Notes: generated from the letters alone by a model not told the origin. Shown: positions 3,470 through 33,502, numbered from the stretch's first letter. The stretch: DNA of 64,000 nucleotides from Dehalococcoidia bacterium (GCA_965247295.1 CBDFGQ010000004.1:65356-129355); one strand, 5' to 3'. Numbers and translations are program-made.

Positions 3470-3525
3470 TAGTGCCGAGGGAGGGATTCGAATCCACACA
3501 CCCTTGACCGTAGCAGATTTTAAGT
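3470..3525 (-). repeat. Partial copy of the tRNA-Leu(UAA) 3' half (anticodon loop to 3' end); putative att site of an integrated element
   Basis: Hand alignment with 33417-33472 gives 50 of 56 identical, same orientation. Similarity ends at the 5' edge of the anticodon loop. No 5' half is present and CCA is replaced by CTA. Confidence 0.75.
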
Positions 3526-3815
3526 TGTACTCTCACCAACCTGTTCTATGTCATTGTATCTGGGGTGGTCTAATCCTGTCCACCAGTTTGCATCTGGACG
3601 GTATTTTCCCTCCCGGCCGGTGATGCCCGGTACCAAGGAGTCCCCGAACAATTTCTCCCAGCTATCGGGAATCTGGGGTAGGACCACGGGCCAGCTGCCT
3701 GAACTCATCCACGCGGCATTATCTCACCGTACTGAAGGGGAAGTAGGTCAGACACGAGACTCCCCCGATGCTATAATTGTCTTAACGACAACCTGCAGGA
3801 GTGGAGGGAGGGGAC

Positions 3816-4811
3816 ATGGCAGCAGGAGACGGCCGGCACCGTAAGCTCTACGTCGGCACGCACGACGAAGTCTGCGCATTGACTAGCTCGGATGGCGGAA
3901 GCACGTGGAAACAGGGGGAGACCACCCCCCTCACCCATGCGGCGGCCCGGCTCAGCGTCAGTGCCACGACTCCTCAGCGTGCCTATCTGGCCGCATACGA
4001 GTCGGGTGTCTATCGCACCGACGACGGGGGCCTGAGCTGGCAAAATCTCTCAACTTACCCCTCCGACTACGCCCACAGTGTGTTGGTACATCCCGAAGAT
4101 GCACAGCACGTGTACGTCGGCAGCGAGCCCGCCGCCTTGTTCCGGTCCGCCGATGGGGGTGAGACCTGGGAGGAGTGTGCCGGGTTCAGATCAGTACCTG
4201 AATCCAGCGACTGGTCCTTCCATGGAGTGCGCCTGTCGCACATACGGGACCTGCGCATGGCCCCCGACGACCCGGGATGCCTGTACGCAGGTATCGAGGT
4301 GGGAGGGGTAGTGCGCTCTCGCGACGGAGGGGATAGCTGGCAGCAGCTCCACGGTACAAACGACGACATCCATTTGGTCAATCTGAGCGGTGATAGGCCT
4401 GGAACCGTTTACATCGCTACCGCGGGCGGGCCCTATCGCAGCGATGACCAGGGCCAGAGCTGGGAGCTCATCAACAGCGGTCTCCAGCGCCAATATACCT
4501 TGCACATCTCCGCAGCTCCCGATAATGCCGACCTGGTGCTCGTGTCGGTTTCCACCAACGCAGGGCGTCAGAACCCCCAGTTCTACCGCTCCACGAATGG
4601 AGGTCGGGAATGGCGGCTAATAGGCTCGGTGGGATCGGATGATGACATGGTGGTTGCAATTGACTGGGACCCCAATGAGCCCCGCCGCGCTTATGCGGGT
4701 ACCGATGGAGGAAAGCTGTTCTGCAGTGAGGATAGGGGTGAGACCTGGGAGCCTCTGCCCGTCAGCCTCCCGTCCGTTGCCGTCAGCGCTATGGTAGTAG
4801 CGCCCTCTTAG
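3816..4811 (+). CDS. BNR/Asp-box repeat beta-propeller protein (glycosidase/Ycf48-like)
   Basis: Seven SxDxGxTW-type boxes (SSDGGSTW, TDDGGLSW, SADGGETW, SRDGGDSW, SDDQGQSW, STNGGREW, SEDRGETW). The ATG at 3816 is preceded by GGAGGGAGG. Confidence 0.8.
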   Translation: MAAGDGRHRKLYVGTHDEVCALTSSDGGSTWKQGETTPLTHAAARLSVSATTPQRAYLAAYESGVYRTDDGGLSWQNLSTYPSDYAHSVLVHPEDAQHVYVGSEPAALFRSADGGETWEECAGFRSVPESSDWSFHGVRLSHIRDLRMAPDDPGCLYAGIEVGGVVRSRDGGDSWQQLHGTNDDIHLVNLSGDRPGTVYIATAGGPYRSDDQGQSWELINSGLQRQYTLHISAAPDNADLVLVSVSTNAGRQNPQFYRSTNGGREWRLIGSVGSDDDMVVAIDWDPNEPRRAYAGTDGGKLFCSEDRGETWEPLPVSLPSVAVSAMVVAPS

Positions 4812-4865
4812 CGTCCGCTGAGAGCACGCTAGACTGGCCCCTTCACGGCCCGGCGGGCCTCCAAG

Positions 4866-5036
4866 TTCCAGTCCCCGCTCGATGATAGCCCTACGCTTGT
4901 CGTATTTCCGTTTTCCACGAGCCAGCCACAGCTCCACCTGCGCCATGTGATCTTTGATGTAAACTCGCAGGGCTACCAGGCTGAGGCCCGTCTCCGACGC
5001 GCTACGCGACACATACGCCAACCGGTCCATGTGCAC
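4866..5036 (-). pseudogene. smpB: C-terminal fragment of SsrA-binding protein SmpB
   Basis: DRLAYVSRSASETGLSLVALRVYIKDHMAQVELWLARGKRKYDKRRAIIER aligns with the SmpB C-terminus (E. coli ...[40 protein letters not shown]). There is an in-frame stop just upstream and no N-terminal two-thirds. The ORF then reads through antisense to the BNR gene. Confidence 0.55.
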
Positions 5037-5299
5037 CGTATATTACTCGATGCAATACTTTGTCGAGTCCACCCCTATCGTCCTGGCGACGGCCACGGTC
5101 CCTATGCAGAGAGCCTGACAACGCCGGGACGGGGGACGTCACGGGGCATAGGAAAAAACGTGACACACCTGGCGACATGAAGTACGATTATCACCATTAA
5201 CGTGACCAATCGTCGCAGTCTGCGCCAGATGTATGTGTCAGGAATCTCTGACACGGGGCACCTGGAGGTAGCGGTTCGGACGATCAAAGGAGGGACGGG

Positions 5300-6337: not shown

Positions 6338-6364
6338 AAGGCGAAGGCATTCAGGGGGACCAGT

Positions 6365-7603: not shown

Positions 7604-7604
7604 G

Positions 7605-8828: not shown

Positions 8829-9158
8829 AGGGGTGCTGCTATACATGCACATCATCAGGCTGAATACGGCATTGAAGGTATCGGGAGGCTCGGTCCTGAT
8901 GAAATCGTGGATCACCACCGACCACCCCAGCCATCAACCCTGTGGCTATGTATGACTTGAATTCACAGGACTCAGCGTCCGGATGCTCCTCCGGGACTGC
9001 GCCTGGCTGGTCCTAGTCAGGACGCTGTTCACTCCTTCGCTTCGCACGTCGTAAGACCTTATTGTTATCGGGGAGCCTGTCCACGTAATAATTGACGCGA
9101 TACAGTATGACTGTACATGCCGTCAAGCGCGTGGGTTAGTGAGAGGAGGCACACTGTC

Positions 9159-10577: not shown

Positions 10578-11018
10578 TTGCCGTGATCTCGGACAGGTCC
10601 AAAGGATGTGGTCCTTCCCCTGACCTATTTCAAGCTGATCAAAGAGTCCTCACCGGTGCCGCCGAGTCGCCCCACGACCATATCCAAGTTGTTTCCCGTG
10701 GCTATACGGGCCTTCTGGAGGCCATTCCAGCAATTATTTACTGATTGCCATTAGAGAGACGCTGGTCAGGCAGTTCCCAGGACGGTCGCAGCCGTATAGG
10801 CTGATGCGGCCCACCTCCAAGTCTGGCTCCAGTCATCGAAGTCATAGGAAGTGCAGAGGGTTAAGCGATGCGGTGATTGACTGCGTTCCAGAGTGACCGT
10901 ACCATCGTCAGCGTGGCGTATGGTCGGATCTCGGTATATCCCCAGCTTGATATAGTGTATGTCGGCTAGGGCCGAGGGTTGTCCGGACTTAGCAGATACC
11001 GGGATTAGGGAGGCCACC

Positions 11019-12269
11019 ATGGATACCATCTTACGGAACACGCGCATAGAGGACGGCGTCCACAAGCTCACGGCCGACATCGGCATCGACCACGGACGAA
11101 TCGCCGTAATCGAGCCGAACCTCGCCGCCGAGGGCGAAGAGATCGACGTAAGTGGCCGGCTGGTCACGCCCGGGTTCATAGAGACACATATTCACCTGGA
11201 CAAGTCCTGTATCCTCGACCGCTGCAAATCGGAAAAGGGAGATCTGAGCGAGGCCATCGGAGAAGTGGGCAAGGCCAAGAAAGAGTTCACCCCCGAGGAC
11301 GTCTATGACCGCGCCAAGAGAACGCTCGAGAAATGCATCCTGAACGGCACAACCCACATGCGCACCCAGCTTGAGGTAGACCCCGGCATCGGTCTGCGAG
11401 GTCTGGAAGGCATCCTGCCGCTGATCGACGAGTACAAATGGGCCATCGATATCGAGATCTGTATCTTTCCTCAGGAAGGGTTACTCAACAATCCGGGGAC
11501 GGATGAGCTAATGGTCGAGGCACTCAGGAGTGGCGGCTCGGTCGTCGGAGCCGCACCGTACACCGATAGCGACCCCCACGGTCAGATCGACCGCATCTTC
11601 GAGATGGCGCGGGAATTGGGCATCGATATCGACATGCATCTTGACTTCGGCCCGGACCCGAGCGAGCTGGACCTCGACTATGTCTGCGAGCTCACGGACA
11701 AATTCGACTATGGTGGCCGGGTGACTATCGGACACATGACCAAACTCTCAGCCGCGGACCCGGAACGGTTCAAGGAAAAGGCCCGGCGGATGGCCGACGC
11801 CGGTGTCTCAGTGACGGTGCTGCCCTCGACGGACCTGTTCCTAATGGGCCGGCACCAAGATCACAGCATCATGCGGGGTGTGACGGCCGCGCACAAATTG
11901 TGCCATGAAGGTGTGAACTGCTCGTTGTCCACGAACAACGTGCTGAACCCCTTTACGCCATTCGGCGACTGCTCTCTAGTCCGGATCGCCAACCTTTACG
12001 CCAACATCTGCCAGGTGGGCACGCGAGACGACATCGTCGAGTGCTACCAGATGATCACCAACCGCTCGGCGAAGCTCATGCGGCTGGATGATTACGGCCT
12101 TGAAGTCGGCAAGTCGGCCGACCTGGTCGTGCTTGATTGTTACGACCGAGCGACCGCGATCGCCGAACTGGCGCAGCCGCTCTGGGGATTTAAGCGTGGG
12201 CGTGTGACCTTCACCCGCGTGCCGGCCGAGTTGCACCGGCCCCACAGAGGCGAAGGTGCCCACGCATGA
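11019..12269 (+). CDS. Cytosine-deaminase-like amidohydrolase
   Basis: VTPGFIETHIHLDKSCILD (HxH metal motif) and overall CodA-like layout. ATG at 11019 with GGGAGG upstream. Stop overlaps ATG 12266 (ATGA). Confidence 0.8.
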   Translation: MDTILRNTRIEDGVHKLTADIGIDHGRIAVIEPNLAAEGEEIDVSGRLVTPGFIETHIHLDKSCILDRCKSEKGDLSEAIGEVGKAKKEFTPEDVYDRAKRTLEKCILNGTTHMRTQLEVDPGIGLRGLEGILPLIDEYKWAIDIEICIFPQEGLLNNPGTDELMVEALRSGGSVVGAAPYTDSDPHGQIDRIFEMARELGIDIDMHLDFGPDPSELDLDYVCELTDKFDYGGRVTIGHMTKLSAADPERFKEKARRMADAGVSVTVLPSTDLFLMGRHQDHSIMRGVTAAHKLCHEGVNCSLSTNNVLNPFTPFGDCSLVRIANLYANICQVGTRDDIVECYQMITNRSAKLMRLDDYGLEVGKSADLVVLDCYDRATAIAELAQPLWGFKRGRVTFTRVPAELHRPHRGEGAHA

Positions 12270-12345
12270 AGCCGATTAAAAGTGAGGTAGGATGGAAAAA
12301 ATGGACACCAAAGTCGGAGTAGGATAATACGACGGAGGTGTCAGA

Positions 12346-12660
12346 ATGAAAAGGGTTCCACAAGGAAGGTACAGCAGGGAATTCCGGCAGGAAGCAGTGA
12401 GGCTGGTAACAGAAGAGAAGCTATCATTGCCAGAGGCAGGCCGCCGGCTGTCCTTGCCGCCATCGACATTAGGGTACTGGGTGAAGGCACATAGGGCTGG
12501 CAAACTGGGAGATGTGGGCAAGACGTACAGGCCCATGACAGAAGTAGAGATGGACCTTGCCCGGACGAAGAAGGAACTGGCGGAAGTGAAGATGGAGCGG
12601 GACATACTAAAAAAAGCAGCCGCGTACTTTGCCAGGGAGTCGCTGCCCGGTACGCGATGA
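12346..12660 (+). CDS. IS3 transposase OrfA (HTH)
   Basis: MKRVPQGRYSREFRQEAVRLV...LPEAGRRLSLPPSTLGYWVK followed by a leucine-zipper-like tail, typical of IS3 OrfA. Confidence 0.9.
   Translation: MKRVPQGRYSREFRQEAVRLVTEEKLSLPEAGRRLSLPPSTLGYWVKAHRAGKLGDVGKTYRPMTEVEMDLARTKKELAEVKMERDILKKAAAYFARESLPGTR
12609..12615 (+). promoter_or_regulatory. Programmed -1 frameshift heptamer A_AAA_AAA(G) of the IS3 transposase
   Basis: CTA AAA AAA GCA in the orfA frame. The orfB frame has no stop from here to 12657. Confidence 0.6.
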
Positions 12661-13520
12661 TGAAAGAACTGCGGCTCGACTACCCCAAATGTGTCTTGGG
12701 CCGGTTGTTGAACGTATCGGCCAGTGGCTACTATGCCTGGGTGGACCGGCCATCGTCCAGGCGAGCACAGGAGGAAGTGCGGCTGGAGCTGGAGATCAGG
12801 GCAGCCCACAAGCGGACGAGACAGACCTATGGCCCGGAACGGTTACAGCGCGACCTGGCGGAGCATGGCGTTCGGGTGGGCATCTGTCGCATCAAGCGTA
12901 TCCGAAAGAAGCTTGGCATACGCTGCAGGCAGAAGAGGAGATTCAAGGCCACCACCGACTCCGGGCACAGACTACCGGTTGCAGATAACATATTGGGCCA
13001 GCAGTTCAAGGTCTGGAGGCCGAACACTGTGTGGGTGAGTGACATCGCCTATATACCGACCGATGAGGGCTGGCTATATCTGGCGGGCCACAAGGACCTG
13101 TTCACCGGAGAGATTGTGGGCTATGCCATGGGAGAGCGGATGACCAAGAACCTGGTTAGTCAGTCTCTATTGCGGGCGCTGAGAGCCAAACGTCCAGCGA
13201 GGGGCCTGATGCATCACTCTGACCGAGGCAGTCAGTATTGCTCCCAGGAATACAGAGGTTTTCTCGAGCGGTCTGGCCTGCGATCTTCCATGAGCGGGAA
13301 GGGGAACTGCTTTGATAATGCTCCGATGGAGAGCTTCTGGGCCACACTCAAGCAGGAGTTGGTCCACCACCGTCATTACAGAAGCAGGCAGGAGGCAGCT
13401 CGAGAGATCACGGAATATATCGAGCTCTTCTATAACCGCCAGCGCCGCCAGGCCAGGCTGGGGTTCCTGTCACCCGCGGCGTATGAGCAGAGATTCTATG
13501 CCGGACTACCAGCAGCATGA
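12657..13520 (+). CDS. IS3 transposase OrfB (DDE integrase core), normally made as an OrfAB -1 frameshift fusion
   Basis: WVSDIAYIPT...HHSDRGSQYCS...NAPMESFWATLKQE are DDE motifs. The frame is open upstream through the slippery site. Confidence 0.9.
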   Translation: MMKELRLDYPKCVLGRLLNVSASGYYAWVDRPSSRRAQEEVRLELEIRAAHKRTRQTYGPERLQRDLAEHGVRVGICRIKRIRKKLGIRCRQKRRFKATTDSGHRLPVADNILGQQFKVWRPNTVWVSDIAYIPTDEGWLYLAGHKDLFTGEIVGYAMGERMTKNLVSQSLLRALRAKRPARGLMHHSDRGSQYCSQEYRGFLERSGLRSSMSGKGNCFDNAPMESFWATLKQELVHHRHYRSRQEAAREITEYIELFYNRQRRQARLGFLSPAAYEQRFYAGLPAA

Positions 13521-14755
13521 AAGGTTTGGTGTCCACTATTTACGTCCGACCTCAAAGCGCGCAGCCGCAAGGACCGCCCAACGAATCTCTTGGAGCCTTC
13601 TGCCACGACAACCATGTGGCGCTCGAAGGCGCGCCGGACGGGCCACTGAGGGGGTTGACCTTCGGCGTCAAGGACATCTTCCACATCGCCGGCCACAGGA
13701 CCGGCTTCGGCCACCCCGACTGGCTGCGCATGCACCCGCCGGCCGAGGTCACGGCGGCGGTGGTGCAGCGGCTCCTCGACGCTGGTGCCCGAATGATTGG
13801 GAAGACCCACACGGACGAGTTGGCCTACAGCCTGAGTGGGGAGAACATGCACTATGGCACGCCTGTCAACCCGGCCGCCCCCGACCGAATCCCCGGCGGA
13901 TCGTCCAACGGCTCGGTTTCAGCCGTCGCCGGGGGGCTCGTGGATTTCGCCCTGGGGACCGACTGCGGCGGCTCGGTGCGTCTACCAGCAAGCTATTGCG
14001 GTGTCCTCGGCATGCGTCCAACCTACGGCCGAGTGCCGCTCGATGGTGTGATCCCATTTGGCCCGAGCTTCGATGTCGCCGGCTGGTTTGCCCGTGACGC
14101 CGATGTCTTGGAGCGAGTGGGTCGAGCGCTGCTCAACGATGAGTCGGAACCTCCAGTTCCCAAACGGCTACTGTACGCCCGCGACGCCTTCGATCTTGTC
14201 GATCCACAGGTGACGGAGGCCTTGGAGGACGCCGTCGGGAAAGCCGTCGTCGCCATCGGCTCCAGTGAAGAGGTCAGGGTCAGCCCCGAGAGTCTGCCCG
14301 CTTGGTTCGAGACCTTCCGGGTGCTGCAGGCGGCGGAGGTTTGGGGCAATCACGGCGCGTGGGTCGAGGCGGTGAAACCCGAATTCGGCCGTGGCATTCG
14401 CGAGCGGCTCGCGTGGGCGTCGCAGGTCACAGAGGATGATGTAGCCGCCTGCAAGGTCAAGCACACAGCGATAAGGGCCCGGATTTATGGGTTGATAAAG
14501 GAGGGCGATATATTGTGCCTGCCGACCTCCCCACGGGTCGCGCCGCTCAGGAACACGCCGACCAACGATATTGAAGTCAGGTTTCGCCACCAGGCGATGG
14601 GCTTGCTGTGCATCGCAGGTCTTGGGGGGCTTCCACAGGTGAGCCTGCCGCTGGCTTCACTCGACGGCCTCCCGCTGGGGCTCTCCCTCGTGGGGCCACG
14701 CGGCGCCGACACGCAGCTGCTAGCCCTGACACGGAAACTGATGCTCGACGCCTAA
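13517..14755 (+). CDS. Amidase-signature amidase with its 5' end replaced by the IS3 insertion (hybrid start inside the IS)
   Basis: GGSSNGSVSAVAGGLVDFALGTDCGGSVRLPASYCG signature. The first 13 codons (MKGLVSTIYVRPQ) lie within the IS right end. The native start can be reconstructed at 12266. Confidence 0.8.
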   Translation: MKGLVSTIYVRPQSAQPQGPPNESLGAFCHDNHVALEGAPDGPLRGLTFGVKDIFHIAGHRTGFGHPDWLRMHPPAEVTAAVVQRLLDAGARMIGKTHTDELAYSLSGENMHYGTPVNPAAPDRIPGGSSNGSVSAVAGGLVDFALGTDCGGSVRLPASYCGVLGMRPTYGRVPLDGVIPFGPSFDVAGWFARDADVLERVGRALLNDESEPPVPKRLLYARDAFDLVDPQVTEALEDAVGKAVVAIGSSEEVRVSPESLPAWFETFRVLQAAEVWGNHGAWVEAVKPEFGRGIRERLAWASQVTEDDVAACKVKHTAIRARIYGLIKEGDILCLPTSPRVAPLRNTPTNDIEVRFRHQAMGLLCIAGLGGLPQVSLPLASLDGLPLGLSLVGPRGADTQLLALTRKLMLDA

Positions 14756-20513: not shown

Positions 20514-20792
20514 TTGGACATCCAGCACCGGATGAAGGTGCTGGTACCGGGACCTTATGGCTCCGTGTTCTGGAACTCCCACCGCAAAGGGACATGGGCG
20601 CTGCATATCCATCAAGGCAACTGGATCTGCTACCTTACCAAGGGGAGAATGAAGGAGAAGTTCGGCGGGACTCAAGAGAACATCTGCCATCCAGGTGATA
20701 TCTTGGCGGCCCAGGCGGGCGCCGAACGCTGTACCGAAGCCCTGGAGGACAACGAGACCTTCGAGTTCAAGTGGCCCGCACCCATGCTGTGA
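20514..20792 (+). CDS. Cupin-domain protein
   Basis: 92 aa: WALHIHQGNWICYLTKGRM...HPGDILAAQAGAERCTEALEDNETFEF is cupin-like. Confidence 0.5.
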   Translation: MDIQHRMKVLVPGPYGSVFWNSHRKGTWALHIHQGNWICYLTKGRMKEKFGGTQENICHPGDILAAQAGAERCTEALEDNETFEFKWPAPML

Positions 20793-20920
20793 AATGGCAT
20801 TAGCCACTCCTGGGAACCGCACCGGTAGCGCTCTCCGATTAGGGTTTAGCAGCAACCGGGTTCACAGGGCCGTAGATGCGTAACAATGGTTGCGGTCGTA
20901 AGGGGAAGAGAGGAGCTAAC

Positions 20921-22324: not shown

Positions 22325-22637
22325 GGGAGTCGATCCTCACCCCACACCGCCGCGGTTGTAAGAAGGTCGGACGGCCCCACAGTTTACGAATATATACAGG
22401 ACACCCGTGTTCCTGTAGTCATGTTGTCATGGAGGCGCGCACTGAAGTTTCTCCGTGGTTGTGTAGCTATATAGGCCCACTCGTCGACCATGTGGCGAAG
22501 CAATCCGACTCTGGGGTTCCAGGTCGGAAAGGGGGTCATAGGTGATGAACCCCCATCCCATGCGTCAGGCCCAAGACAGTAAGTGGTGGGCCTGACGCCG
22601 TTCTCGCAGGTCCTTCTCTTGGGGTGCTTGGGCTAGC

Positions 22638-23843
22638 TCAATCCTCACAGAAAAACCGCTTGCGCACCGACTCGTCCAGCGGCCCAATAGGGCCGTTGAA
22701 GATGGTTAGGGGATTTCGGCTGGGGTCCTGACTCCACATAGGTAGAATCTTCTCCCGGCGGGTATCGGCTTCAGGCCCGGTTTGACATAGGACTTCGGCC
22801 ATCCAATTTTCGAAGTTATGTATTATTCCGAAATCCCGATCGTGCTGGGCCGCGTAGGCATTCCCGGCTTCCTCCCAGTTTTCGTTGGCCACGAGATTTC
22901 CAGATAGGAGCTTGGCGTCATGAATGGCCAAGCCTAAGCCCTGTCCCCAGCTTGGGTCGGTTGCTCCGGCGGCGTCACCAATCAGGGCAAGACCGTTTCG
23001 GTAGGGGTGTTCCACCCAGTTGGTTGCTCCGCTAAAAGTGGCCAAGGGTCCAGAAACCGCAGCTGGTCCGAATATTTCATCCGGAACACCCGCCACTCGG
23101 GCTCCCGCCAAGAATTGGGAGAATCCGGAGTCGCCGCTCATGCGGTATTCGGTTGAGGCCGGGTAAGATACGTAGGCCCTTCCTCTTCTTCCTCTTTGAC
23201 AAAAAACGAAGGACTTATGCCCCGTTGATGGGGTCATTCAATGGTGGACGGCGTCATTTTGCAGGGGCAAGTCGTCTAATAGAACCCCAGCCACCATGTT
23301 TAGGTCGGGATCAGCCTGGACGGAGAAACCACCCGACATCCTGCCCATCGAGCTGCGGCCATCTGCGCTGACCACCAAGCGCGCTTGCAACTCTGTGCTC
23401 TGGCCGTCTTGGTTGGCCTTTACTGTTGGTGCGCCGCCTAGGTTTATCTCGCGCACACGGGCACCCCGCCTAACCTCCGCGCCAGCATCTGACGCAGCGT
23501 TGACTAGGGCTTCCTGCAGGTCCGGGTGATAGATTGATAGCATCGGCGTCTTCGGAGTCGTGGTGGCTTCAAGGTCTTGGCGGTCCATATGCTCAGGTCC
23601 GTGGTACCAGTACCAATACCGTAGAAGGTTTGCACCGGCAGTCATCAGAGTATCGTAGACGCCCAAATCCATGGCCTCTTTCGTACTCCAAGGTGCAATC
23701 GCTTCTCCCCGCACCCGGTCTCTGAAGGATGTTTGCGATTCCAGGACCAGGACTTTAGCTCCGTGTTCCGCCATGACTCTGGCCAGGATCGAACCGGCAA
23801 TCCCTCCCCCAACGGTGATGATATCGTAGGTTTGTGCTGCCAT
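22638..23843 (-). pseudogene. FAD-dependent monooxygenase interrupted by one in-frame TGA
   Basis: N-terminal YDIITVGGGIAGSILA dinucleotide fold and C-terminal LALIGDAAGATDPSWGQGL motif lie in two abutting same-frame ORFs (...AVHH*MTPSTGHKSFVF...). Confidence 0.75.
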
Positions 23844-23944
23844 TAACCCTGCTCCTCAAGCGCCGTTCGAAGATTTAATGAGTGGTTCGACTCGATTATT
23901 GGCGACGGAAGCTTGGGTGTCAAGCTTGCGCTGGCTATCGAATT

Positions 23945-24292
23945 CTAACGGCCGCATCTTTCCACTTCAGTCAGATGGCCCCAGTTAAAATCCCCTGCGT
24001 CAACGGCGATGGCCGCCACGTTATGGGCCCGGGCCTTTTTGATGGCCATGCGCATCGCCCTCTCGGTGACCACAAATCCAAATCCCCAGTTCCCGTTGAT
24101 CACGGCCGTGGTGGGGGACTCCTGAACCACCTCGAAGGGCGCCCCCGGCACTATGTGGCCCCGGCGAATGCGGTCGACATACTCGGGTATGTGGATAACG
24201 CCGTGGGAGTCGTGGCCCGCCAGGTTGGCCTTCACCTGGTGCTTGGCATCCACCCCGGTTCCACCTCCTTGAGTGTGCCGACTGCTTCTCAT
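23945..24292 (-). pseudogene. Truncated Ldh_2-family (malate/L-lactate/sulfolactate dehydrogenase type 2) gene
   Basis: LAGHDSHGVIHIPEYVDRIRRGHIVPGAPFEVVQESPTTAVINGNWGFGFVVTERAMRMAIKKARAHNVAAIAV matches only the N-terminal third of the roughly 340-aa family. Confidence 0.55.
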
Positions 24293-25188
24293 GGGAGGTA
24301 CATGCGGTTGACCTTGGCCACATAGCTAAAGGTTGGGTTCACGAACTGGGTACACCGCGCCTCCAGCACCTGGCCCAAAAAAAGATACGCCTCCCCCATC
24401 GAGAAACCGTAGTCCTCCTGGAGCCAGAGGACCATCTCAGCCAGCGCAGTCCTGAAGGCGTCCTCGGCGGGCCTGGCGTTGGCTGTGGTCATTATGTGAG
24501 TTTCGTTGGTGATCCGAGGCCAGGACATGCAGGCCGGCTTGTCTGCCAGATCGCACGATATCTTCACTCGACCACCAGCCTCGATGCCGCCCGCGCCGCA
24601 GATCTCCCCGTCGCCCTGGCGCGCGTGCATATCCCCGATGTGGAGCAACGCCCCCGGGACGGTGATCGGCAGATAGACCGACGCCCCCGTGGTGACCTCC
24701 TGGATATCGAAGTTGCCGCCCCACTGGCCAGCCCAACCGTTGCTCCAGCGGGTGTATTCAGGAGCCACGCCGACGAAGCCGAGCATGGGAGCGACGGGAA
24801 TCCTGAGTACGTCACTCCAATGGATGTACCCATCGCTGATCTCTACAACCTTTTGGTGTGCGCCAACCCCGCTGGGTCCCAGCCAGCCAGGCATCGCGCT
24901 GTTGGCACCGGTGTACCTGGTATACCCTACAGGGTCCAGGTCTATTTCGCCGACGTGTACGATCAGCATCTGACCAGGCTGGGCGCCCTCCACGTAAATA
25001 CACCCACTGGAGGGATTGCCGCCCCGCAGCTTCCGTTCCAGCGCTTCCCGGTCAGGATGATTCTCCAGCCACGGTCCGCGGTTGATCTGAGTCTCTACCT
25101 CAAACTCCTCGCCAGGCTCTACGCGTAGGGTTGGCTCGTTGCTCGGGCCCGTCTCGAAATAGAGGACATCTTTGGTGGCGCGTTTCAT
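24289..25188 (-). CDS. Acetamidase/formamidase family protein
   Basis: 299 aa: TLRVEPGEEFEVETQ...GGNPSSGCIYVEGAQPGQMLIVHVGEIDL...GDMHARQGDGEICG is FmdA/AmdA-like. Confidence 0.8.
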   Translation of the reverse strand: MKRATKDVLYFETGPSNEPTLRVEPGEEFEVETQINRGPWLENHPDREALERKLRGGNPSSGCIYVEGAQPGQMLIVHVGEIDLDPVGYTRYTGANSAMPGWLGPSGVGAHQKVVEISDGYIHWSDVLRIPVAPMLGFVGVAPEYTRWSNGWAGQWGGNFDIQEVTTGASVYLPITVPGALLHIGDMHARQGDGEICGAGGIEAGGRVKISCDLADKPACMSWPRITNETHIMTTANARPAEDAFRTALAEMVLWLQEDYGFSMGEAYLFLGQVLEARCTQFVNPTFSYVAKVNRMYLP

Positions 25189-25230
25189 TTGTCATGCTCC
25201 TTGTGGTGCTCAAGTCACCTGCTAACCAGG

Positions 25231-26193
25231 TTACTCCGTGAAATCGTTCGCCTTGCGCCAGGCAAGGTATTCCCGAATACCGGAGCGAAGGTCGAACTGG
25301 GGGACGAATCCCAAATCGCTTTGAAGTCGCGCTGAAGACAAATGGGAACCACCGCGAATAGGGACAGTGGAGGGCACATCCGCCACGCGAAGGCCAGGAT
25401 GCACCTCCTCCAGGACCTGGATAATGTAGCCCATCGATCTCCGTTCTTCCACCGTAACGTTGTAAACATCGTAGGACAGCGACGGCGCCTGCAGGACCGT
25501 GGCGATGCCATTCGCCATATCGGCCACGTAGGTGAACGCCCCCTCGGCTGTCCGATCAGCGACCTCAACGGGCTCGCCTCTGACGATATTCCCCGTCCAT
25601 CTCTTGAGGACAGACTGGTTCGCCCGGTGGTCTGTGACCCGCTCCATCGGCCCAAAAGGTGAGCCCAGCCGTGTACTCACCGTAGAAAAACCGTGCAGCT
25701 CCCCGTACCTTCGCGTCAGCAGCTCACTGGTGTACTTGGTGAGTGCATAGAGTGTTCGCGGTCGAGGAGCGGTATCTTCGACGAGAGCCATCTCAGGGTC
25801 GTGGTCTTCTCCGTAGATAGACCCGGAACTTACGTATAGGAACCGCTCGATCGGTAGCTGGCGTGCTAGCTCAAGTAGGTTCGTTGTGCCCATCACGTTG
25901 ATGTCCACGATGGACCTACTCCGGCCCGCTTCCACTTCTGGAAGAACTCCGGTGAATACGGCGGCATGGACGATCCTTGTGATGCCGTGGCCCAGTAGTT
26001 GGCTCAGGTCCTCTTGTCGGAGGATGTCTCCCTGAACGAAAGTGATTCTGTCCGCCCACGGCTTGATGTACTCGTGGAGCAGTTGGTGGGGGGCGACTAA
26101 GTCAAAACAGATGACTTGTTGACCTCGTTCCGCCAGTGTTCGCACGACGTTGCTTGCTACGAAACCGGTTCCACCCGTCACTAAGGTAGCCAT
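25231..26193 (-). CDS. NAD-dependent epimerase/dehydratase (SDR)
   Basis: MATLVTGGTGFVASNVVRTL... The ATG at 26193 is preceded by GAAGGAGG. Confidence 0.85.
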   Translation of the reverse strand: MATLVTGGTGFVASNVVRTLAERGQQVICFDLVAPHQLLHEYIKPWADRITFVQGDILRQEDLSQLLGHGITRIVHAAVFTGVLPEVEAGRSRSIVDINVMGTTNLLELARQLPIERFLYVSSGSIYGEDHDPEMALVEDTAPRPRTLYALTKYTSELLTRRYGELHGFSTVSTRLGSPFGPMERVTDHRANQSVLKRWTGNIVRGEPVEVADRTAEGAFTYVADMANGIATVLQAPSLSYDVYNVTVEERRSMGYIIQVLEEVHPGLRVADVPSTVPIRGGSHLSSARLQSDLGFVPQFDLRSGIREYLAWRKANDFTE

Positions 26194-26719
26194 ACATGGT
26201 CCTCCTTCTTTACGATCTTGTGCGCGGATTGGCCAAAAAGGCCAGGAAGGGACTGACGCCAATCACCTGCGTGGTGGTGATGGACTCAGATGAGACCTTG
26301 GTTGGGTCCAACCGAACCTGCGCGATTGGGCCAAAATCTCGACGCGGGCTGATGGGATGATGCTATTTCGTGGCGAACCATCCCGTTGGGTGCACGCACG
26401 CTCCCTCAGCTCCTCGGTGGCCTTCAGATCGAGCTGAAGGGTATCCGGACCAACGACGCCGCCGCTGAGGAACGAAGCCCGCCTCTTCCGGGAAACCTGG
26501 GCAATTATAACACCGTTACTGGTAAGCCACCCCGTGACTTCGGGAATGGGGGCGCGGGCTTGATGATCAGACGGTGGAGAACGCTGGGCAGTCAAGGCAT
26601 AATAGTCTGCTCACCCGCATCTCGATTGCAAATTTCGTTACAATTGGTGAAGACCAGGAGATCAAGACCCACCAGCGGATCTGGAATGCCAAATATCATC
26701 CGAAGGGAGGCCGTTCAAT

Positions 26720-27646
26720 ATGAGCGACAGCAGCGGGAGACAGCCCTTTAGACTCATGGAGACCTTTCGGTCCCTGTTCTACACACCCCTCTACGTGGCC
26801 GTCGCCGGTGGCTTTCTGAATGAGGAGGGCCTTGCCGTGGAGTTCTCCACATGCCCTCCGGGACACCACGGATTGAGCGCACTGAACAGCGGAATCGCCG
26901 ACATCGCCCAGGCGGGGCCAATGAGAAGCATAATTGCCGCCGACTGGGGGGCCGAGGTCGTGCCCCTGCACATCATTGAGATCAACAGCCGCGACGGCTT
27001 CTTCCTCGTTGGTCGGAAGCCCCAGGACCAGTTTCAGTGGATCGACCTGAAGGGCGCCACCCTGATCCCCGTGGGTTTCTCGCCCATGCCAGTGGCTTCC
27101 CTCAAATACGCCCTGAGAAGAAAAGAGGTCGAGCTGTCGGAAATGCGGCTAATTGAAGGGCATTCCCTCCAGGAAGCTACCAATGCCTTCCGACGAGGGG
27201 AGGGCGACTTTATTCACCTGCCTCAGCCGGCAACGGAACAGCTGGTCCAGGAAGGCGCAGGACATCTGTGCGTCGCCCTGGGCCCGATAAACGGCCACAT
27301 ATCCTACAGCTCCTTCGCCGTCACTCAACGATTGCTCCACGCTAACCCAGAGGTCATACACCGGTTCACCCGGGGATTTTATAGCGCCCAAAAATGGCTG
27401 GCGGAGAGCGACTCCAAGCCTATTGCTAAAACCGTAGCCGCCTTCTTCCCCGAAATAGAGTCAATCGTGTTAATCAAGTCGATCGGCCGGTACAAAGAGC
27501 AAGACACGTGGGCCAAGGACCCTCTGTTAAGGGTAGATGGCTTCGACGCGCTGCAGGAGATATTGGTAGAAGCGGGCCTGGTCAAGTCCCGGCAGCCCTA
27601 CGAGCGGATTGTGTGCACCGAGTTCGCCCAGGCTGTTCTGGGATAG
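26720..27646 (+). CDS. NMT1/THI5-like (SsuA/ThiY-type) substrate-binding protein
   Basis: FRSLFYTPLYVAVAGGFLNEEGLAVEF and overall periplasmic-binding-protein layout. No obvious signal peptide. Confidence 0.7.
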   Translation: MSDSSGRQPFRLMETFRSLFYTPLYVAVAGGFLNEEGLAVEFSTCPPGHHGLSALNSGIADIAQAGPMRSIIAADWGAEVVPLHIIEINSRDGFFLVGRKPQDQFQWIDLKGATLIPVGFSPMPVASLKYALRRKEVELSEMRLIEGHSLQEATNAFRRGEGDFIHLPQPATEQLVQEGAGHLCVALGPINGHISYSSFAVTQRLLHANPEVIHRFTRGFYSAQKWLAESDSKPIAKTVAAFFPEIESIVLIKSIGRYKEQDTWAKDPLLRVDGFDALQEILVEAGLVKSRQPYERIVCTEFAQAVLG

Positions 27647-27698
27647 AAACGCCGGGAGTGGACCTATGGCAGGAAAGGGCCCTGGCAGGTGGCGAGAC

Positions 27699-28931
27699 CT
27701 ACCGCGTCGGTTTGATATGACTCCCGACCTGAGCGCTGGTCTGAGCCCTCTGGCCCCCTTGGGAGCGGTCCCGGGCTACTCGCGCTCCGAGCATCAGGGC
27801 GACGGCCGCCAGCACCAGTGCGATCCCCAGCAATCGGAATGTAGAGGTGAAATCTAGCCAGGTTATCAATAAGCCGCCCATCACAGGTCCAGCCACCTTG
27901 CCCGTGTTCTTCAGGGTGCCGATCAGGCCCATACCAGCGCCGAGATTGCCCTGACTGACGCGATTGGATACCAGGGCCAGGGTAGAGGGGAAGGCCATTG
28001 CCTGTGCGACCCCCATCAGAACTGCCGGGGCCATCAGGAGGGCGGCGCTCTTCGCAAATGTCAGGAGAAGCAACGCCAGGCCGAGGACGCACATCCCCAC
28101 CGCAAGCGCGTTGATATAACCAACGCGGTCTCCCAGGCGGCCTCCCAGCGGGTTCAGGCACAGATGCACCAGCTCCTGCACGGCGAAGAAGGCGCCGGCG
28201 ACGGCCACGTTGACGCCGATGGAGAGGGCGTAGATGGGTACGAACGCCTTAGCCGCGTATAGGGCTACGTACATCGAGGCGTCCAGACCTCCGGACAGCC
28301 AGACGGCCGAGGTCCTGGCCCCCTCTTTGAATGCACCCACGATCTGTGCTGGCAGCGTGCGCCGGCGAGTCGGGTCCGCTGGCCTGGACTCCGAGAGTAG
28401 CAGCACCGGTAAGAAGGCGGCGCTGCTCATCAGCCCGACGATGGTGAACACCAAGACCGGTGACATCGAGAGCAGCATCCACCCGGCCGCGGCCGGGCCG
28501 ACCACGTAGCCACCATTCCTGGCCAGGCTGAACCACCCCAGACGCTCGGCCCGCCTCTCACTGGACAGCTCCGCTACGTAGGCCAGGGTAACCGGCCCGT
28601 AGATGGCCGTCGCCATCCCGTGAGCTATACGCACGGCAAACAGCTGCTCGGGGGTGCTGACGAACCGGTACACGAAGGGCATACCGGCGAAGAAGACCGT
28701 GCCTACCAGCAGCCAGGCGCGGCGGCCCCATCGGTCCGAAAGCACGCCGATGAAGGGTTTGAGGGCTAGACCCGTCAGCGCCGAGACCGAGACGATGAAG
28801 CCAAGGAACGCGTCGGAGGCGCCGAGCATGGCCGCGTAGATGGGAAGCAGAGGCGTCTTGCCCATCTGGTAGGCCGAGCGCACAATGAAGTCAGCCCCCG
28901 TTATCAGGCAGAAGTTACTCTGCCGGCTCAA
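27699..28931 (-). CDS. MFS transporter
   Basis: 410 aa, about 12 hydrophobic segments, GVLSDRWGRR motif between TM2 and TM3. Confidence 0.85.
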   Translation of the reverse strand: MSRQSNFCLITGADFIVRSAYQMGKTPLLPIYAAMLGASDAFLGFIVSVSALTGLALKPFIGVLSDRWGRRAWLLVGTVFFAGMPFVYRFVSTPEQLFAVRIAHGMATAIYGPVTLAYVAELSSERRAERLGWFSLARNGGYVVGPAAAGWMLLSMSPVLVFTIVGLMSSAAFLPVLLLSESRPADPTRRRTLPAQIVGAFKEGARTSAVWLSGGLDASMYVALYAAKAFVPIYALSIGVNVAVAGAFFAVQELVHLCLNPLGGRLGDRVGYINALAVGMCVLGLALLLLTFAKSAALLMAPAVLMGVAQAMAFPSTLALVSNRVSQGNLGAGMGLIGTLKNTGKVAGPVMGGLLITWLDFTSTFRLLGIALVLAAVALMLGARVARDRSQGGQRAQTSAQVGSHIKPTR

Positions 28932-29024
28932 GGGGCGGCACGCCGCATGGATGAATGTCGGCGATTCACTCGATTCTGGTCCTACTGACTTTCGCCGCCG
29001 TCGGGCACATCTTTAACTGCGACC

Positions 29025-32000
29025 CTAGCTCGTTCGGGGGACGATTGCCGGGATCTCTAGCTCGCGGACCAGGTTCTCGAACGCCGAGACATCTTTATCG
29101 ATTATCTCCTCCACACGGTCCAGGTGAGGCTGGATCTTGGCACTGATGTCCGCGAATACCGCCAACGCCTGCGTGGGTGGTGCGAAGTCGGCGGCTGCCA
29201 CCACTGCTGTGATCTCTGCCAGCTTCGCGTTCAGCCTGGCGGGCAGGTTCAATCGGTCCCGGGCGCCGGTGTGGGCGACCTGGATCAGCTCATCTTCCGC
29301 CGCTTTGAGCCTATCCTTAATCGTCTTGCCCGAAGTTGCGACGGCCTCCCCCGAGGCGTGATCCTTGGCTCTCTCGATCCACTCGTTGACCTGCAGGCGG
29401 ACGCTGCGCAGCTTGATTATGGAGTCGTGGGTCTCCGACAACCTATCGCGGATCCTGACCAACAGGTCGAACTGGGCCTCGAAGTCCTTCTGGGTCGCGG
29501 TTACCCGCGGGTCTTTAACGAGCAGGAAGCTTTCGGCCTGGGAATCGTCACCGACGTTCAGCCGCGCCTGGTACCGTCCCGGTGGGGCCATGGGTCCGAA
29601 GCCCTCGTCGTCCATTGTCTTGTCGCCGGGCACCTTTCGCGCGTCGGGGTAGCGCATGTGCCAGATGAACCGGTTCATGCCCACCTCCGCCGGCACTCGC
29701 TGCTCGGGCGGCTGGATTAAGTCCTTACTTTCGGGCTCCTTGCTGGAGTAGGTCCGGATCTCCTCTCCGTGAGAGTCGAAGAAGCTCAGCGTCACCTCGG
29801 CCTCAGGCTTCTCCTTCAGGTAGTAGTTGACTATCACTCCGTGCGGGGGGTTCTTGCCCCCGTCCAGAAAGTCAAGCTTCAGGTCTCCGTAGGGATCGGT
29901 CGTCTCGGTGTAGGCGATATAGCCACCCACGCCCCTCGTGTAGCTCTTCCCCGGGGTCGGTTTCTGGACTCGGAAGGGCGCCGCCGTCCGGTAGGTATCA
30001 CGTGGCCTGAGCAGGGTGAACTGCGGTGCTGCCAGCTCCCCAGCGAGCTGACGGACCTGCGTCAGGTCGTCCATGATCCAGAAGGAGCGCCCATGGGTGG
30101 CGGCTACCAGGTCGTCGTCCTTGACGATCAGATCGTAGACCGGAACCTTGGGCAGGTTGGCCTGCATGGGCTTCCACGACTGCCCATCGTCGAACGAGAT
30201 GTAGGCGGTGGTCTCTGTGCCAGCGTAGAGCAGCCCGGGACGCACCGGGTCCTCTCGCACGACCCTGGTGTAGTCTTCCTCGGGGATGCCGTTGGTTATC
30301 TTGGTCCAGGACCTTCCGTAGTCGCCGGTCTTGTACAGCAACGGAGTGTTGTCGTCGAGCTTGTAGCGCGTCGCGGCCAGATACGCCTTGGCCGGGTCGT
30401 GAGGTGAGGGCTCGATCATGCTGATCAGCGTCCACTCAGCCATTCCGTCGGGGGTTATGTTGTCCCAATTGGCGCCGCCGTCGCGAGAGATGTGGACGAG
30501 CCCATCGTCCGAGCCAGCCCAGAATACGCCCTTCTCGTGGGGCGACTCGACGAAGGCGAAGATGGTGGCGTATGTCTCCGCCCCTGACGTGTCCAAGGTG
30601 ACGGGCCCTCCCGAAGGCCCCAACTTGGTCTCGTCGTTGCGTGTCAGGTCGGGACTGATGGGCTCCCAACTGCTACCCTGGTCTCGGGACCGAAAAGCGA
30701 TGTTGCCCGAGACGTAGAGGTCGTCGGAGTCGTGGGGCGAGAAGAAGATGGGATAGGTCCACTGGAACCGGTACTTCATCTCCTTGGCGCCCAGGCCGAT
30801 GTTGATCTCGGGCCACACGGTGATGATTCTTATCTGGCCGGTCCGGTGGTCGTAGCGCAGCATGTTGCCCCCGCCACCCGGAGAGCTGCCGATGGCGCCG
30901 GAGATGACGATGTTGGGGTCTTCCGGATGCACGGCTATATGGCCGCTCTCCGATGTCCCAACTGTGTAGCAGTCGCCCCAGGGTATGGCTCCTTTGTGCG
31001 TCATTGAGGGCACGCTGATGGCCGAGTTGTCTTGCTGGGTGCCGTAGAGGCGGTAAGGGTACTGGTTGTCCGCGGCGACGTGATAGAACTGGGCGGTAAG
31101 CTGGTTGTAGATGGTGGACCACGAGTCGCCGCCGTTGAACGAGACGCAGGCGCCACCGTCGTTGCCCTCGATCATGCGCTGGGGGTTGCGAGGGTCGATC
31201 CAGAGGTCGTGGTTGTCGCCGTGGGGCGTCGTTACCTCGGTGAATGCCCTGCCCCCGTCGATGGACTTCCAGCACTTGTAGTTGAGGATCCACAGGGTGT
31301 CCTGGTCCTTAGGGTCAGCGAAGACGTGCTGGTAGTACCACGGCCGTCCCTGGAGGTCCTGGTTGTTGCTGACCATCTCCCACTTGGCGCCGCCGTCGTC
31401 GGAGCGGTACAGCGCTGCTTTCTCGGACTCGACCGTAGCCCATACGCGACCGGACCTGGCGGGCGACACGGCCACACCGATGCGACCCTTGGTCCCCTCG
31501 GGCAGACCCGGGTTGTTGGTGATGTCGGTCCACGTATCTCCCCCGTCCACGGACCTGTACAGCGCGCTGTCGGGTCCGCCGCTGGTGAGGCTCCAGGGGT
31601 TCCGGTTGGCCTGCCAGATAGATGCGTACAGGATCCGAGGGTTGTTCGGGTCCATCGACAGGTCGGCCGCCCCGGCGCTGTCGCTCCTGGACAGAACATG
31701 CTCCCAGTTCTTGCCGCCGTCGGTAGAGCGGAACACCCCTCGCTGTGCGTTGGGTCCGAAGGCGTGCCCGAGGGCCGCCACGTACACCTGGTCCGGGTCT
31801 TTGGGGTGGACGCGTACCCGCGAGATGTGGCGGGTGTCCTCTAGTCCCAGGTGGGTCCACGTCTTGCCTGCGTCCGTCGACTTGTACACACCGTCGCCGT
31901 AGGAGACGTCGAGGCGGATGCATGCCTCCCCCATACCCGCGTAGAGGACGTTGGGGTCCGAGTCGGAGACCGCGATGGCACCGACCGATGCCGTCTTGAA

Positions 32001-32189
32001 GTAGCCGTCGGACACGTTCTGCCAATACGTGCCGGCGTCGTCAGTCTTCCATACGCCTCCGGCGCACGCGCCGAAGTAGAACACGGCAGGATTCACTGGG
32101 TCGCCTGCAACGGCCACCACCCGTCCTCCCCGCGGTGGGCCAATGCAACGCCATTCCAGTCCGTTGAGCATGTTCTGGTCGACAGTCAC
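29025..32189 (-). CDS. Large BNR/Asp-box, sortilin/VPS10-type double-propeller protein (GH74-like glycosidase family)
   Basis: 1054 aa with many Asp-boxes (KTDDAGTYW, STDAGKTW, STDGGKNW, SVDGGDTW, SDDGGAKW, SIDGGRAF, SRDGGANW, FDDGQSW). Confidence 0.85.
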   Translation of the reverse strand: MTVDQNMLNGLEWRCIGPPRGGRVVAVAGDPVNPAVFYFGACAGGVWKTDDAGTYWQNVSDGYFKTASVGAIAVSDSDPNVLYAGMGEACIRLDVSYGDGVYKSTDAGKTWTHLGLEDTRHISRVRVHPKDPDQVYVAALGHAFGPNAQRGVFRSTDGGKNWEHVLSRSDSAGAADLSMDPNNPRILYASIWQANRNPWSLTSGGPDSALYRSVDGGDTWTDITNNPGLPEGTKGRIGVAVSPARSGRVWATVESEKAALYRSDDGGAKWEMVSNNQDLQGRPWYYQHVFADPKDQDTLWILNYKCWKSIDGGRAFTEVTTPHGDNHDLWIDPRNPQRMIEGNDGGACVSFNGGDSWSTIYNQLTAQFYHVAADNQYPYRLYGTQQDNSAISVPSMTHKGAIPWGDCYTVGTSESGHIAVHPEDPNIVISGAIGSSPGGGGNMLRYDHRTGQIRIITVWPEINIGLGAKEMKYRFQWTYPIFFSPHDSDDLYVSGNIAFRSRDQGSSWEPISPDLTRNDETKLGPSGGPVTLDTSGAETYATIFAFVESPHEKGVFWAGSDDGLVHISRDGGANWDNITPDGMAEWTLISMIEPSPHDPAKAYLAATRYKLDDNTPLLYKTGDYGRSWTKITNGIPEEDYTRVVREDPVRPGLLYAGTETTAYISFDDGQSWKPMQANLPKVPVYDLIVKDDDLVAATHGRSFWIMDDLTQVRQLAGELAAPQFTLLRPRDTYRTAAPFRVQKPTPGKSYTRGVGGYIAYTETTDPYGDLKLDFLDGGKNPPHGVIVNYYLKEKPEAEVTLSFFDSHGEEIRTYSSKEPESKDLIQPPEQRVPAEVGMNRFIWHMRYPDARKVPGDKTMDDEGFGPMAPPGRYQARLNVGDDSQAESFLLVKDPRVTATQKDFEAQFDLLVRIRDRLSETHDSIIKLRSVRLQVNEWIERAKDHASGEAVATSGKTIKDRLKAAEDELIQVAHTGARDRLNLPARLNAKLAEITAVVAAADFAPPTQALAVFADISAKIQPHLDRVEEIIDKDVSAFENLVRELEIPAIVPRTS

Positions 32190-32311
32190 ACTATCACCTC
32201 TTCTGCGTCATGTAAGCTGGTCCTCTGCCATAGAGAAACACTATCATTACCAATCGTACGCCCAGGTAGCCCCCAGGGCCTGCGGCCCGAGATCCCAGAG
32301 AACTCCTCGGG

Positions 32312-32464
32312 CTACCGAGCTTGAGCGCGCCCTCGGGTCGCCGCTGCTGGCACAATACGGGACCGTCGCACCATGCGCTGCTCCATCGTCGTCTTACGCA
32401 CCCAAGACTCCAGCGTTCTCCGCTCCTGTTCCGTCAGGGCAATGGTTGTCGCTACTCCTGCCAT
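32312..32464 (-). pseudogene. Remnant of an IS630-like transposase N-terminal HTH
   Basis: Own translation: MAGVATTIALTEQERRTLESWVRKTTMEQRMVRRSRIVPAAATRGRAQAR*. The LTxxERxxLExxxR...RxRIV pattern is typical of the N-terminus of IS630-family transposases. Only about 50 aa remain. Confidence 0.35.
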
Positions 32465-33416
32465 ACAAGGAGCATACTAGGGTTGGGCTAAACTCACCGT
32501 TCCCCCTCCATGCTAGCGGTATCACACCTCGTGCGTTGACGGCCGTTCAGGAATTTCCTCTAACGCGTATGCGATCACAGGCACCGGTACCAGAGGTAAA
32601 GCCATACGCATTTCCCGTTCATTACGGTCTGTTTCTTAGTCTGCTGGCTGTTCCAGTTGGGTTTTCCCACTACCTGGAGCAGCCGATGGGCCCACCTCCG
32701 TCTTCTCTACGTGAATGATCATAGGCGCGTGGGTAAGCTACACCTATGCTGGCTCGACGTCAAATCCGTGTGTATGGCCGGTAGTGTAGCCTGCTGGATG
32801 TAAAGGAGAGCGCGCTTATCCTTCCAGGATGTAGACATTGACCAAGCTTGGGCTGGTTGAATTCTGTAAGTCGCCGACTGCGAGGCATAACCAGCCTCAC
32901 GCATTGTAGTGCCTAGCCTTGTACCAGGTATCGCCTTGTCAGGCATCCTGCGGCCTTTCCTACGCCATGCTGCACCCACACCGCCTCCGCCCAGTGCTGA
33001 CCTAATTGTTGGCCTCGTTTGCTATTACAGCCCATGACAACTGCCCCTGGGGCGACGGGGCCACGCTACCTTATCATGGGTGTCAAGTGTGGGGATGCAG
33101 CTGTGACTAAGGCTCAAGCCAAGCTGCCGGTGATGCTGGTGACCTGGCCGATATGCCCGTACCGATTCCGTACGGGCCCACAAAACTGACTTCTCGGAAT
33201 TTCGTCTGGCACAAGCGGGACGTGGAAAAATCTCTGAAGAGAGACGGCATCCCCGCCCGCCGTAAGGCCCCATCACGCTCCCGGATAGGGCCCTTTATAT
33301 TCGTCCACGTAGGTCTACGAAAAGGACCGTGGGCATTTCGTGGACATGCACAGCTCTTTAGAACAGGGCCCGCGTCGCAATCACAGCGAATATCGTCTCA
33401 GTGTTTAGCTGAAACC

Positions 33417-33502
33417 TGGTGCCGAGGGAGGGATTCGAACCCACACACCCGTGAGGGTAGCGGATTTTAAGTCCGCCGCGTCTACCATTCCGCCACCTCG
33501 GC
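33417..33502 (-). tRNA. tRNA-Leu (anticodon UAA), class II with long variable arm, CCA encoded
   Basis: Minus strand GCCGAGGTGGCGGAATGGTAGACGCGGCGGACTTAAAATCCGCTACCCTCACGGGTGTGTGGGTTCGAATCCCTCCCTCGGCACCA. 7-bp acceptor stem, anticodon stem GCGGA/TCCGC with loop CTTAAAA, TTCGAAT T-loop. Confidence 0.9.

Follow-up and report, generated by a model that had tools for sequence, protein, structure and literature searches.

This locus raises the question of whether roughly 30 kb of DNA lying between an intact tRNA-Leu(UAA) gene and a displaced copy of its 3' part is a genomic island. The two copies lie in a 64,000-nucleotide stretch from a Dehalococcoidia bacterium (GCA_965247295.1 CBDFGQ010000004.1:65356-129355), all of which was analyzed and is referred to here as the window. 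A first-pass annotation had interpreted the pair as the footprint of insertion by a tyrosine integrase and the DNA between them as an old, now immobile island. The first part of that interpretation stands: the repeat is very probably the old attR scar of an integration of the anticodon-loop class into tRNA-Leu(UAA). The second part is not established; a degenerate-island origin of the enclosed 29.9 kb, as opposed to host DNA now lying between the scars, is only moderately likely. The feature is of a known, ordinary kind, in a poorly studied lineage.

The intact tRNA-Leu(UAA) gene (33417-33502, minus strand), detected by ARAGORN and scored at 61.8 bits by Rfam, is the last gene of the host cluster Leu(GAG)-Cys(GCA)-Leu(UAA), and the displaced copy is found downstream of it on the same strand. 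The previously reported match of 3470-3525 to 33417-33472 at 50 of 56 positions was reproduced to the exact count, and precise alignment showed that the gap-free direct repeat is longer, 66 nucleotides (nt) with 58 of 66 identical (BLAST E ~1e-14). The attL-type copy (33407-33472, minus strand) comprises tRNA positions 31-86 plus ~10 nt of downstream DNA, and the attR-type relic (3460-3525, minus strand) is the displaced 3' part. The match starts at tRNA position 31, which closes the 5' strand of the anticodon stem and lies 1 nt before the loop CTTAAAA, in keeping with the reported break at the anticodon loop; the 45 nt upstream of this start are unrelated in the two copies (p = 0.985). The change from 88% identity to no similarity is sharp, and the 7-nt anticodon-loop overlap is the same in both copies. 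Past the tRNA 3' end, the likeness had been thought to continue weakly for about 25 nt, but it is significant over only ~10-12 nt (GGTNNCAGCT, p ~0.03), with no significant likeness at positions 13-45 (p = 0.49). The repeated block thus extends from position 31 to ~10 nt past the CCA, the form of an attachment site of the anticodon-loop class, and an intact tRNA with a same-strand cognate 3' fragment downstream is the arrangement used to recognize islands in the Islander collection.

Alignment of the two copies revealed six substitutions within the tRNA part of the displaced one. When stem positions were taken from the fold, a CC-to-GG change was seen to disrupt the variable-arm stem and a G-to-A change the T stem, and the terminal CCA was changed to CTA. 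Because of these stem-breaking substitutions and the altered terminus, the displaced copy is read as a drifting, non-functional fragment, and it should not be annotated as a tRNA gene. A degenerate 54-nt pattern detected just these two copies in the window (0 expected, on the basis of 100 shuffles), so the possibility that the fragment belongs to a dispersed repeat family, which the first-pass annotation had named as a way for its interpretation to fail, is not borne out within the window. A permissive Rfam scan of positions 1-36000 yielded no further tRNA-like fragment, and ARAGORN and Rfam identified two tRNAs in the window, tRNA-Leu(UAA) and a tRNA-Thr(AGU) located far to its right (56308-56380, minus strand).

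Integrase-bearing elements at the same tRNA gene occur in unrelated metagenome contigs. JGI metagenome contigs were scanned with the 5' half and anticodon arm of tRNA-Leu(UAA), providing 89 loci, most of which, where enough upstream sequence was available, have the cluster (Ala)-Arg-Trp-Leu(GAG)-(Gly)-Cys-Leu(UAA). Several contigs contain the tRNA 3' part a second time, further downstream. The repeat of L197 covers tRNA positions 31-84 (53/54 identical, 4.8 kb away), those of L200 and L183 cover positions 29-85 (57/57 identical, 5.1 kb away), and that of L188 covers positions 36-84 (4.2 kb away); the copies in L229 and L215 are only 0.8 kb and 160 nt away, respectively, the latter with 54/58 identical. 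Immediately after the tRNA, L197 and L200 have a gene for a small tyrosine integrase (PF00589, E = 6.5e-30 and 2.3e-23, respectively); they also encode AAA_25, HTH_17, and RusA proteins. Judged by eye, L188 retains only an open reading frame (ORF) fragment resembling the C-terminal catalytic region of an integrase, and the ORFs downstream in L215 resemble ordinary host genes. Of the 63 contigs that extend far enough downstream, ~7 have an integrase adjoining tRNA-Leu(UAA). Elements at this tRNA thus appear to form a decay series, from intact through truncated to fully eroded.

The window repeat starts within 2 nt of the starts in the integrase-bearing elements (positions 29-31, 1-3 nt before the loop). 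Like the window, L197, L200, and L183 have tRNA-Leu(UAA) as the target and repeats that run from positions 29-31 to the tRNA 3' end; unlike it, they are 4.8-5.1 kb in size with repeats that are 98-100% identical, and they derive from other taxa with tRNA clusters that include tRNA-Gly. L197 and L200 further differ from the window block in carrying the integrase, a replication-type ATPase, and an excisionase-like HTH protein. The occurrence of the same footprint along with an integrase in these independent contigs, added to the same-strand 3' fragment starting at the anticodon loop, upholds the assignment of the window repeat to a tyrosine integrase. A separate observation concerns a different tRNA: in L088, tRNA-Val(UAC) (11898-11974) has a perfect 42-nt copy of its positions 33-74 at 14535-14576, 2.6 kb downstream, and the repeat encloses three ORFs (among them ClpS-like and alpha/beta hydrolase-like by eye) and no integrase. 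This is a second integrase-less repeat of the anticodon-loop type in the lineage.

A partial tRNA gene could also arise with no integration at all, if tRNA-Leu(UAA) had been duplicated and the 5' half of one copy destroyed by deletion or insertion. Segmental duplication and decay can yield such partial genes, and the fragment does carry several substitutions. The break, however, is located within 1 nt of the anticodon loop, and the repeats of integrase-bearing elements start within 2 nt of that point; the 88% identity falls to none abruptly rather than fading, and ~10 nt downstream of the tRNA are repeated as well. We consider duplication improbable. For the integration that we prefer, a tyrosine integrase would have recombined an element-borne copy of the tRNA 3' part with the chromosomal tRNA-Leu gene, regenerating the tRNA at 33417-33502 and moving the old 3' part downstream, where it would since have drifted.

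The first-pass statement that no intact integrase is present holds for the interior (3526-33416) but is misleading for the locus: an intact 376-residue tyrosine integrase (33807-34937, minus strand; PF00589 and PF14659) is encoded just outside, 300 nt from the 5' end of tRNA-Leu(UAA). This gene, and the prophage directly across tRNA-Leu(UAA) to which it belongs, had been overlooked. The prophage is a separate and apparently intact insertion in tRNA-Cys(GCA) that runs from 33585 to beyond 64000, a conclusion that is well supported. The integrase reads toward a 21-nt attR core, CGAATCCGCCCGTCGCCTCCA (33585-33605, minus strand), which is the 3' end of tRNA-Cys(GCA) and the same as the tRNA-Cys 3' end of relatives; the core is unique in the window, is situated 200 nt past the integrase stop codon, and is not part of the Leu repeat. 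Three clustered GCCGACA motifs (33701-33728, minus strand) between the stop codon and the core are conserved in related elements and are candidate arm-type integrase sites. The attL site and the regenerated tRNA-Cys are beyond the window.

The empty site of this prophage was seen directly in L166, a locus from an ENA assembly that encodes an identical 1054-residue BNR protein. Over the 12.9 kb compared, which correspond to window positions 20736-33605, L166 and the window share 99.8% identity. L166 has intact tRNA-Leu(GAG), tRNA-Cys(GCA), and tRNA-Leu(UAA) genes in a row with no prophage, and its homology to the window sets in precisely with the final 21 nt of tRNA-Cys. Therefore, the prophage was inserted in tRNA-Cys, and tRNA-Leu(UAA) is merely the next host gene. 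An integrase, a core equal to a tRNA 3' end, phage structural genes, and an empty site in a sister strain are all found for this element.

Given that the integrase gene is just 300 nt from tRNA-Leu and reads toward it, and that a relative with 71% identity (in L086) has tRNA-Leu(UAA) as its target, one might ask whether this enzyme made the Leu repeat or whether the prophage and the 30 kb are a single element. Such an origin is hardly credible. The prophage is on the 5' side of tRNA-Leu and so cannot have made a 3' fragment 30 kb downstream of that gene, its own attR (the tRNA-Cys core) intervenes between the integrase and tRNA-Leu, and the prophage-free L166, whose empty site contradicts a shared element, retains, with 99.8% identity, no less than the 12.7 kb of the block that are nearest the tRNA. 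In addition, the integrase family leaves repeats of 15-22 nt, not 66 nt; a tRNA 3'-end repeat of that size follows ~130-250 nt after the integrase in L086, L088, L099, L155, L157, and six more loci. We conclude that the integrase at 33807-34937 did not make the Leu repeat. Integration has thus struck the Leu(GAG)-Cys-Leu(UAA) cluster twice, leaving a prophage in tRNA-Cys and an old scar in tRNA-Leu, which makes the cluster a double hot spot.

The enclosed block (3526-33406, 29.9 kb) was characterized by Pfam scans and tetranucleotide usage and contains host-like catabolic genes. In order from the fragment to the tRNA, it encodes a 336-residue BNR protein, an smpB fragment, a 345-residue protein with no family assignment, two coenzyme A (CoA)-transferase III proteins, an amidase, an amidohydrolase, an insertion sequence (IS) of the IS3 family, an N-terminally shortened amidase, two dehydrogenases, a CMD-family protein, another amidohydrolase, another amidase, a flavin adenine dinucleotide (FAD)-dependent monooxygenase, an FmdA-like protein, an epimerase, an NMT1-type binding protein, an MFS transporter, and the 1054-residue BNR protein, followed by a 1.2-kb stretch without a recognizable gene. 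By Pfam, the totals are three amidases, two CoA-transferase III proteins, and two BNR/sortilin-repeat proteins. The last two, encoded near the block ends, were considered as possible duplicates and rejected as such, being just 28% identical.

The IS element, gene fragments, and nonsense-interrupted gene that had been described for the block are all present. The smpB fragment (4857-5036 by tblastn, minus strand; PF01668, E = 1.9e-10) matches profile positions 78-131 of 143, is missing its 5' two-thirds, and is on the same strand as the tRNA-Leu fragment, 1.3 kb from it; neither the rest of the window nor any retrieved locus yielded another smpB. The IS3 element (12283-13555, plus strand) has orfA at 12346-12660 and orfB at 12657-13520, with rve and HTH_Tnp_1 matches, and an 87% identical copy is present in L084. 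Adjoining it is the amidase that lacks the first ~35 profile positions (13517-14755; Pfam match from profile position 36). The monooxygenase gene (22638-23843, minus strand) is a pseudogene in which W202 is changed to a stop codon; in L166, this stop is absent and the product has 399 residues, and a frameshift after approximately residue 364 is a further difference between the two sequences.

We favor, with moderate confidence, the interpretation that the repeat is an attR relic and the block an old integrative element, or several, that lost its recombination module by deletion and is now fixed and immobile. The most likely history would involve one old integrative element or several stacked ones, with the recombination module lost by deletion and not by gradual decay in place, leaving integrase-less catabolic genes, one IS element, and a few pseudogenes as a fixed stretch of the chromosome. 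With the element would have come the 30 kb, in whole or in part. Deletion of the integrase means that the original element is at least partly lost, so that what the block contains today need not be the cargo it arrived with.

Several results weigh against this interpretation. Pfam scans of the main ORFs revealed no tyrosine integrase in the block, the gene by which Islander qualifies an island, and no phage, conjugation, toxin-antitoxin, or restriction genes were found in the block by the Pfam scans. The 1.2-kb stretch directly downstream of tRNA-Leu (32190-33416), which is where the integrase sits in intact relatives of such elements, contained no recognizable gene and no integrase remnant in six-frame Pfam scans that were empty at E values up to 1. 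Loss by deletion has to be assumed because the repeat is only 12% diverged and an integrase gene decaying in place over that time should have stayed recognizable. In tetranucleotide usage, 5-kb pieces of the block correlate with host core DNA at r = 0.87-0.92, compared with 0.76-0.90 for the prophage; the block is no less similar to the host core than the prophage is. The left flank (1-3303) encodes the same kinds of genes as the block, and large catabolic paralog families are a hallmark of SAR202-type Dehalococcoidia (PMC10444878). Finally, no relative was found in which tRNA-Leu is directly followed by the left flank.

Other searches of the block gave similar outcomes. No plasmid gene was found in it by the Pfam scans, and tblastn with the window integrase, or with the integrases and partner proteins of L197 and L200, detected no remnant in the block; Pfam scans of the small ORFs at both block ends also showed no integrase remnant. 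An IS630-type transposase N-terminus suspected by eye at ~32200-32330 (minus strand) was dropped for want of Pfam support. The composition profile, suggested by the first-pass annotation as a means of delimiting the island, exhibited no boundary at either repeat: the GC (guanine plus cytosine) content of the block is 0.58-0.62, with no shift at either copy, within a range of 0.56-0.65 across the window. The block therefore has neither of the features, a mobility gene or an anomalous composition, that Islander uses as further signs of an island.

These properties bring in the main competing explanation, in which the scar is all that remains of the element. A small, ~5-kb element resembling L197 or L200 would have been lost by deletion, and IS-mediated inversion, translocation, or insertion would later have brought the 30 kb of host DNA between the repeat copies. 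In composition and gene content the block is like the host, with no mobility gene left, L215 and L229 keep both repeat copies with almost nothing between them, the perfect 42-nt tRNA-Val repeat of L088 surrounds three ORFs and no integrase, and a fragment of the core gene smpB is located 1.3 kb from that of the tRNA. The population has active IS elements, as indicated by the IS3 element of the window and by an extra DDE-transposase IS of L166 (15668-17371) that has an 8-bp target duplication (GGCTTACC; window counterpart, 26521-26528). In L166, transposase genes also stand between core genes and the tRNA cluster, and the synteny of relatives ends after PIG-L. This scheme nevertheless needs extra events, the repeat search identified no second IS copy or inverted repeat at a rearrangement boundary, 30-kb islands with metabolic cargo are common, and the supposed earlier arrangement was seen in no relative. 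We regard it as the less likely of the two.

No retrievable relative was close enough for shared gene order on this side of the locus. Relatives with 77-79% protein identity are not syntenic here, and the closest retrievable NHL homologue (in L163, 79%) shares no other gene with the window. Two relatives found by way of the upstream core gene PIG-L (L167 and L169) keep the upstream synteny from SSB through PIG-L and lose it right after PIG-L, downstream of which neither the tRNA cluster nor the block is present. L001 and L086 have only prophage DNA and the tRNA in common with the window, and the 89 JGI contigs with tRNA-Leu(UAA) share no flank with it. In L166, the only close strain, PIG-L and the tRNA cluster have transposase genes between them. 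On the basis of the synteny break after PIG-L and these transposase genes, the locus is at a rearrangement-prone breakpoint. The left flank of the window itself, as assigned by Pfam, comprises genes for an amidohydrolase (~3-1499, running off the window), a cupin (1799-2104), and an NHL-repeat protein (2332-3303), all on the minus strand.

Returning to the degenerate-island interpretation, one variant of it would leave the block usable as an integrase-less cargo element between attL and attR at tRNA-Leu(UAA): elements of the L197 or L200 type, which have the same target, could conceivably excise and move it in trans. We regard this as decidedly unlikely. If true, it would offer a route for spreading clusters of catabolic paralogs among SAR202-like Dehalococcoidia.

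The remainder of the window is occupied by the prophage body (34938-64000, running off the window). Domain scans identified a GmrSD-like/Excalibur protein, an M78 peptidase, a PD-(D/E)XK nuclease, an intein-bearing helicase, a primase, a methylase, and a Mom-like protein, followed by the large terminase, portal, tRNA-Thr, prohead protease, and major capsid gene. The first of these, a 548-residue protein (34938-36584, minus strand) with a C-terminal GmrSD-type endonuclease domain and an Excalibur calcium-binding domain, adjoins the integrase and may be a prophage-borne defense gene. The helicase gene (ResIII/Helicase_C; 42694-45261, plus strand) is split by an intein with Hint and LAGLIDADG homing-endonuclease domains. 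A prophage ORF contains a tandem array of ~16-20 copies of a 12-nt unit resembling GCCGCCGCCAGG (39472-39740), which probably encodes a Gly/Pro-rich repeat. The tRNA-Thr(AGU) gene (Rfam, 57.8 bits) is inside the prophage between the portal and protease genes, on the opposite strand; its anticodon, AGU, is unusual for bacteria.

Full-length, 376-residue relatives of the prophage integrase are present in Dehalococcoidia. The nearest relatives of both this integrase and the core gene beside the locus are all from metagenome-assembled Dehalococcoidia (Chloroflexota), some of them labeled SAR202; in the viral collection, the closest relatives are at most 36% identical and were uninformative. Some loci have the integrase followed by a full same-strand tRNA at the attR position (tRNA-Cys in L089, 11343-11418, and in L102, 11615-11691; tRNA-Gly in L112, 11324-11398). 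Loci of this kind raised the idea that the family inserts 5' of tRNAs, which was rejected for the window and for L157 because the tRNA there is the next host gene after a short attR fragment. In L001 (11148-11759), an HNH-endonuclease gene is located between an 86% identical integrase and the tRNA-Cys core, and the 10 kb upstream include recA and NAD-synthase genes and no intact tRNA-Cys.

The locus is thus a tRNA cluster of an uncultured Dehalococcoidia bacterium with a live-looking prophage, of proven empty site, on one side and an old scar on the other, and it carries two warnings for method. A tRNA with a displaced fragment marks a past integration, not the foreignness of all of the DNA between them, and an integrase beside one tRNA may belong to the neighboring tRNA. 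The 30 kb should not be labeled a mobile island without comparative proof.

Among known systems, the closest parallels are in Islander, which lists 3919 islands, with 2083 anticodon-centered and 1836 T-stem sites, 3760 of them with 3' fragments (PMC4383910); the anticodon-centered sublocation class goes back to Williams (2002), as cited there. The window repeat also agrees with a general account of tRNA fragments as attR relics (PMC9897764). Like Islander class A islands, the window has an intact tRNA and a same-strand 3' fragment from the anticodon loop to past the tRNA 3' end, and 30 kb is within their usual size range. Unlike them, it has no integrase inside and would fail the Islander integrase filter, its repeat is only 88% identical, its composition does not stand out from that of the host, and the relatives examined showed no empty site. 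A second parallel is with cis-mobilizable elements (CIMEs), described in streptococci, which are integrase-less remnants flanked by att sites. The block resembles CIMEs, as far as sequence alone can tell, in having attL- and attR-like flanking repeats without recombination and transfer genes, and it differs from them in that its attR copy has diverged and its cargo is not distinguishable from host genes. The neighboring prophage, for its part, is like the temperate phages of Islander class J, whose sites extend from the T loop to the tRNA 3' end: its integrase reads outward to a short tRNA-3'-end core, which in this case is accompanied by candidate arm-type repeats and a demonstrated empty site.

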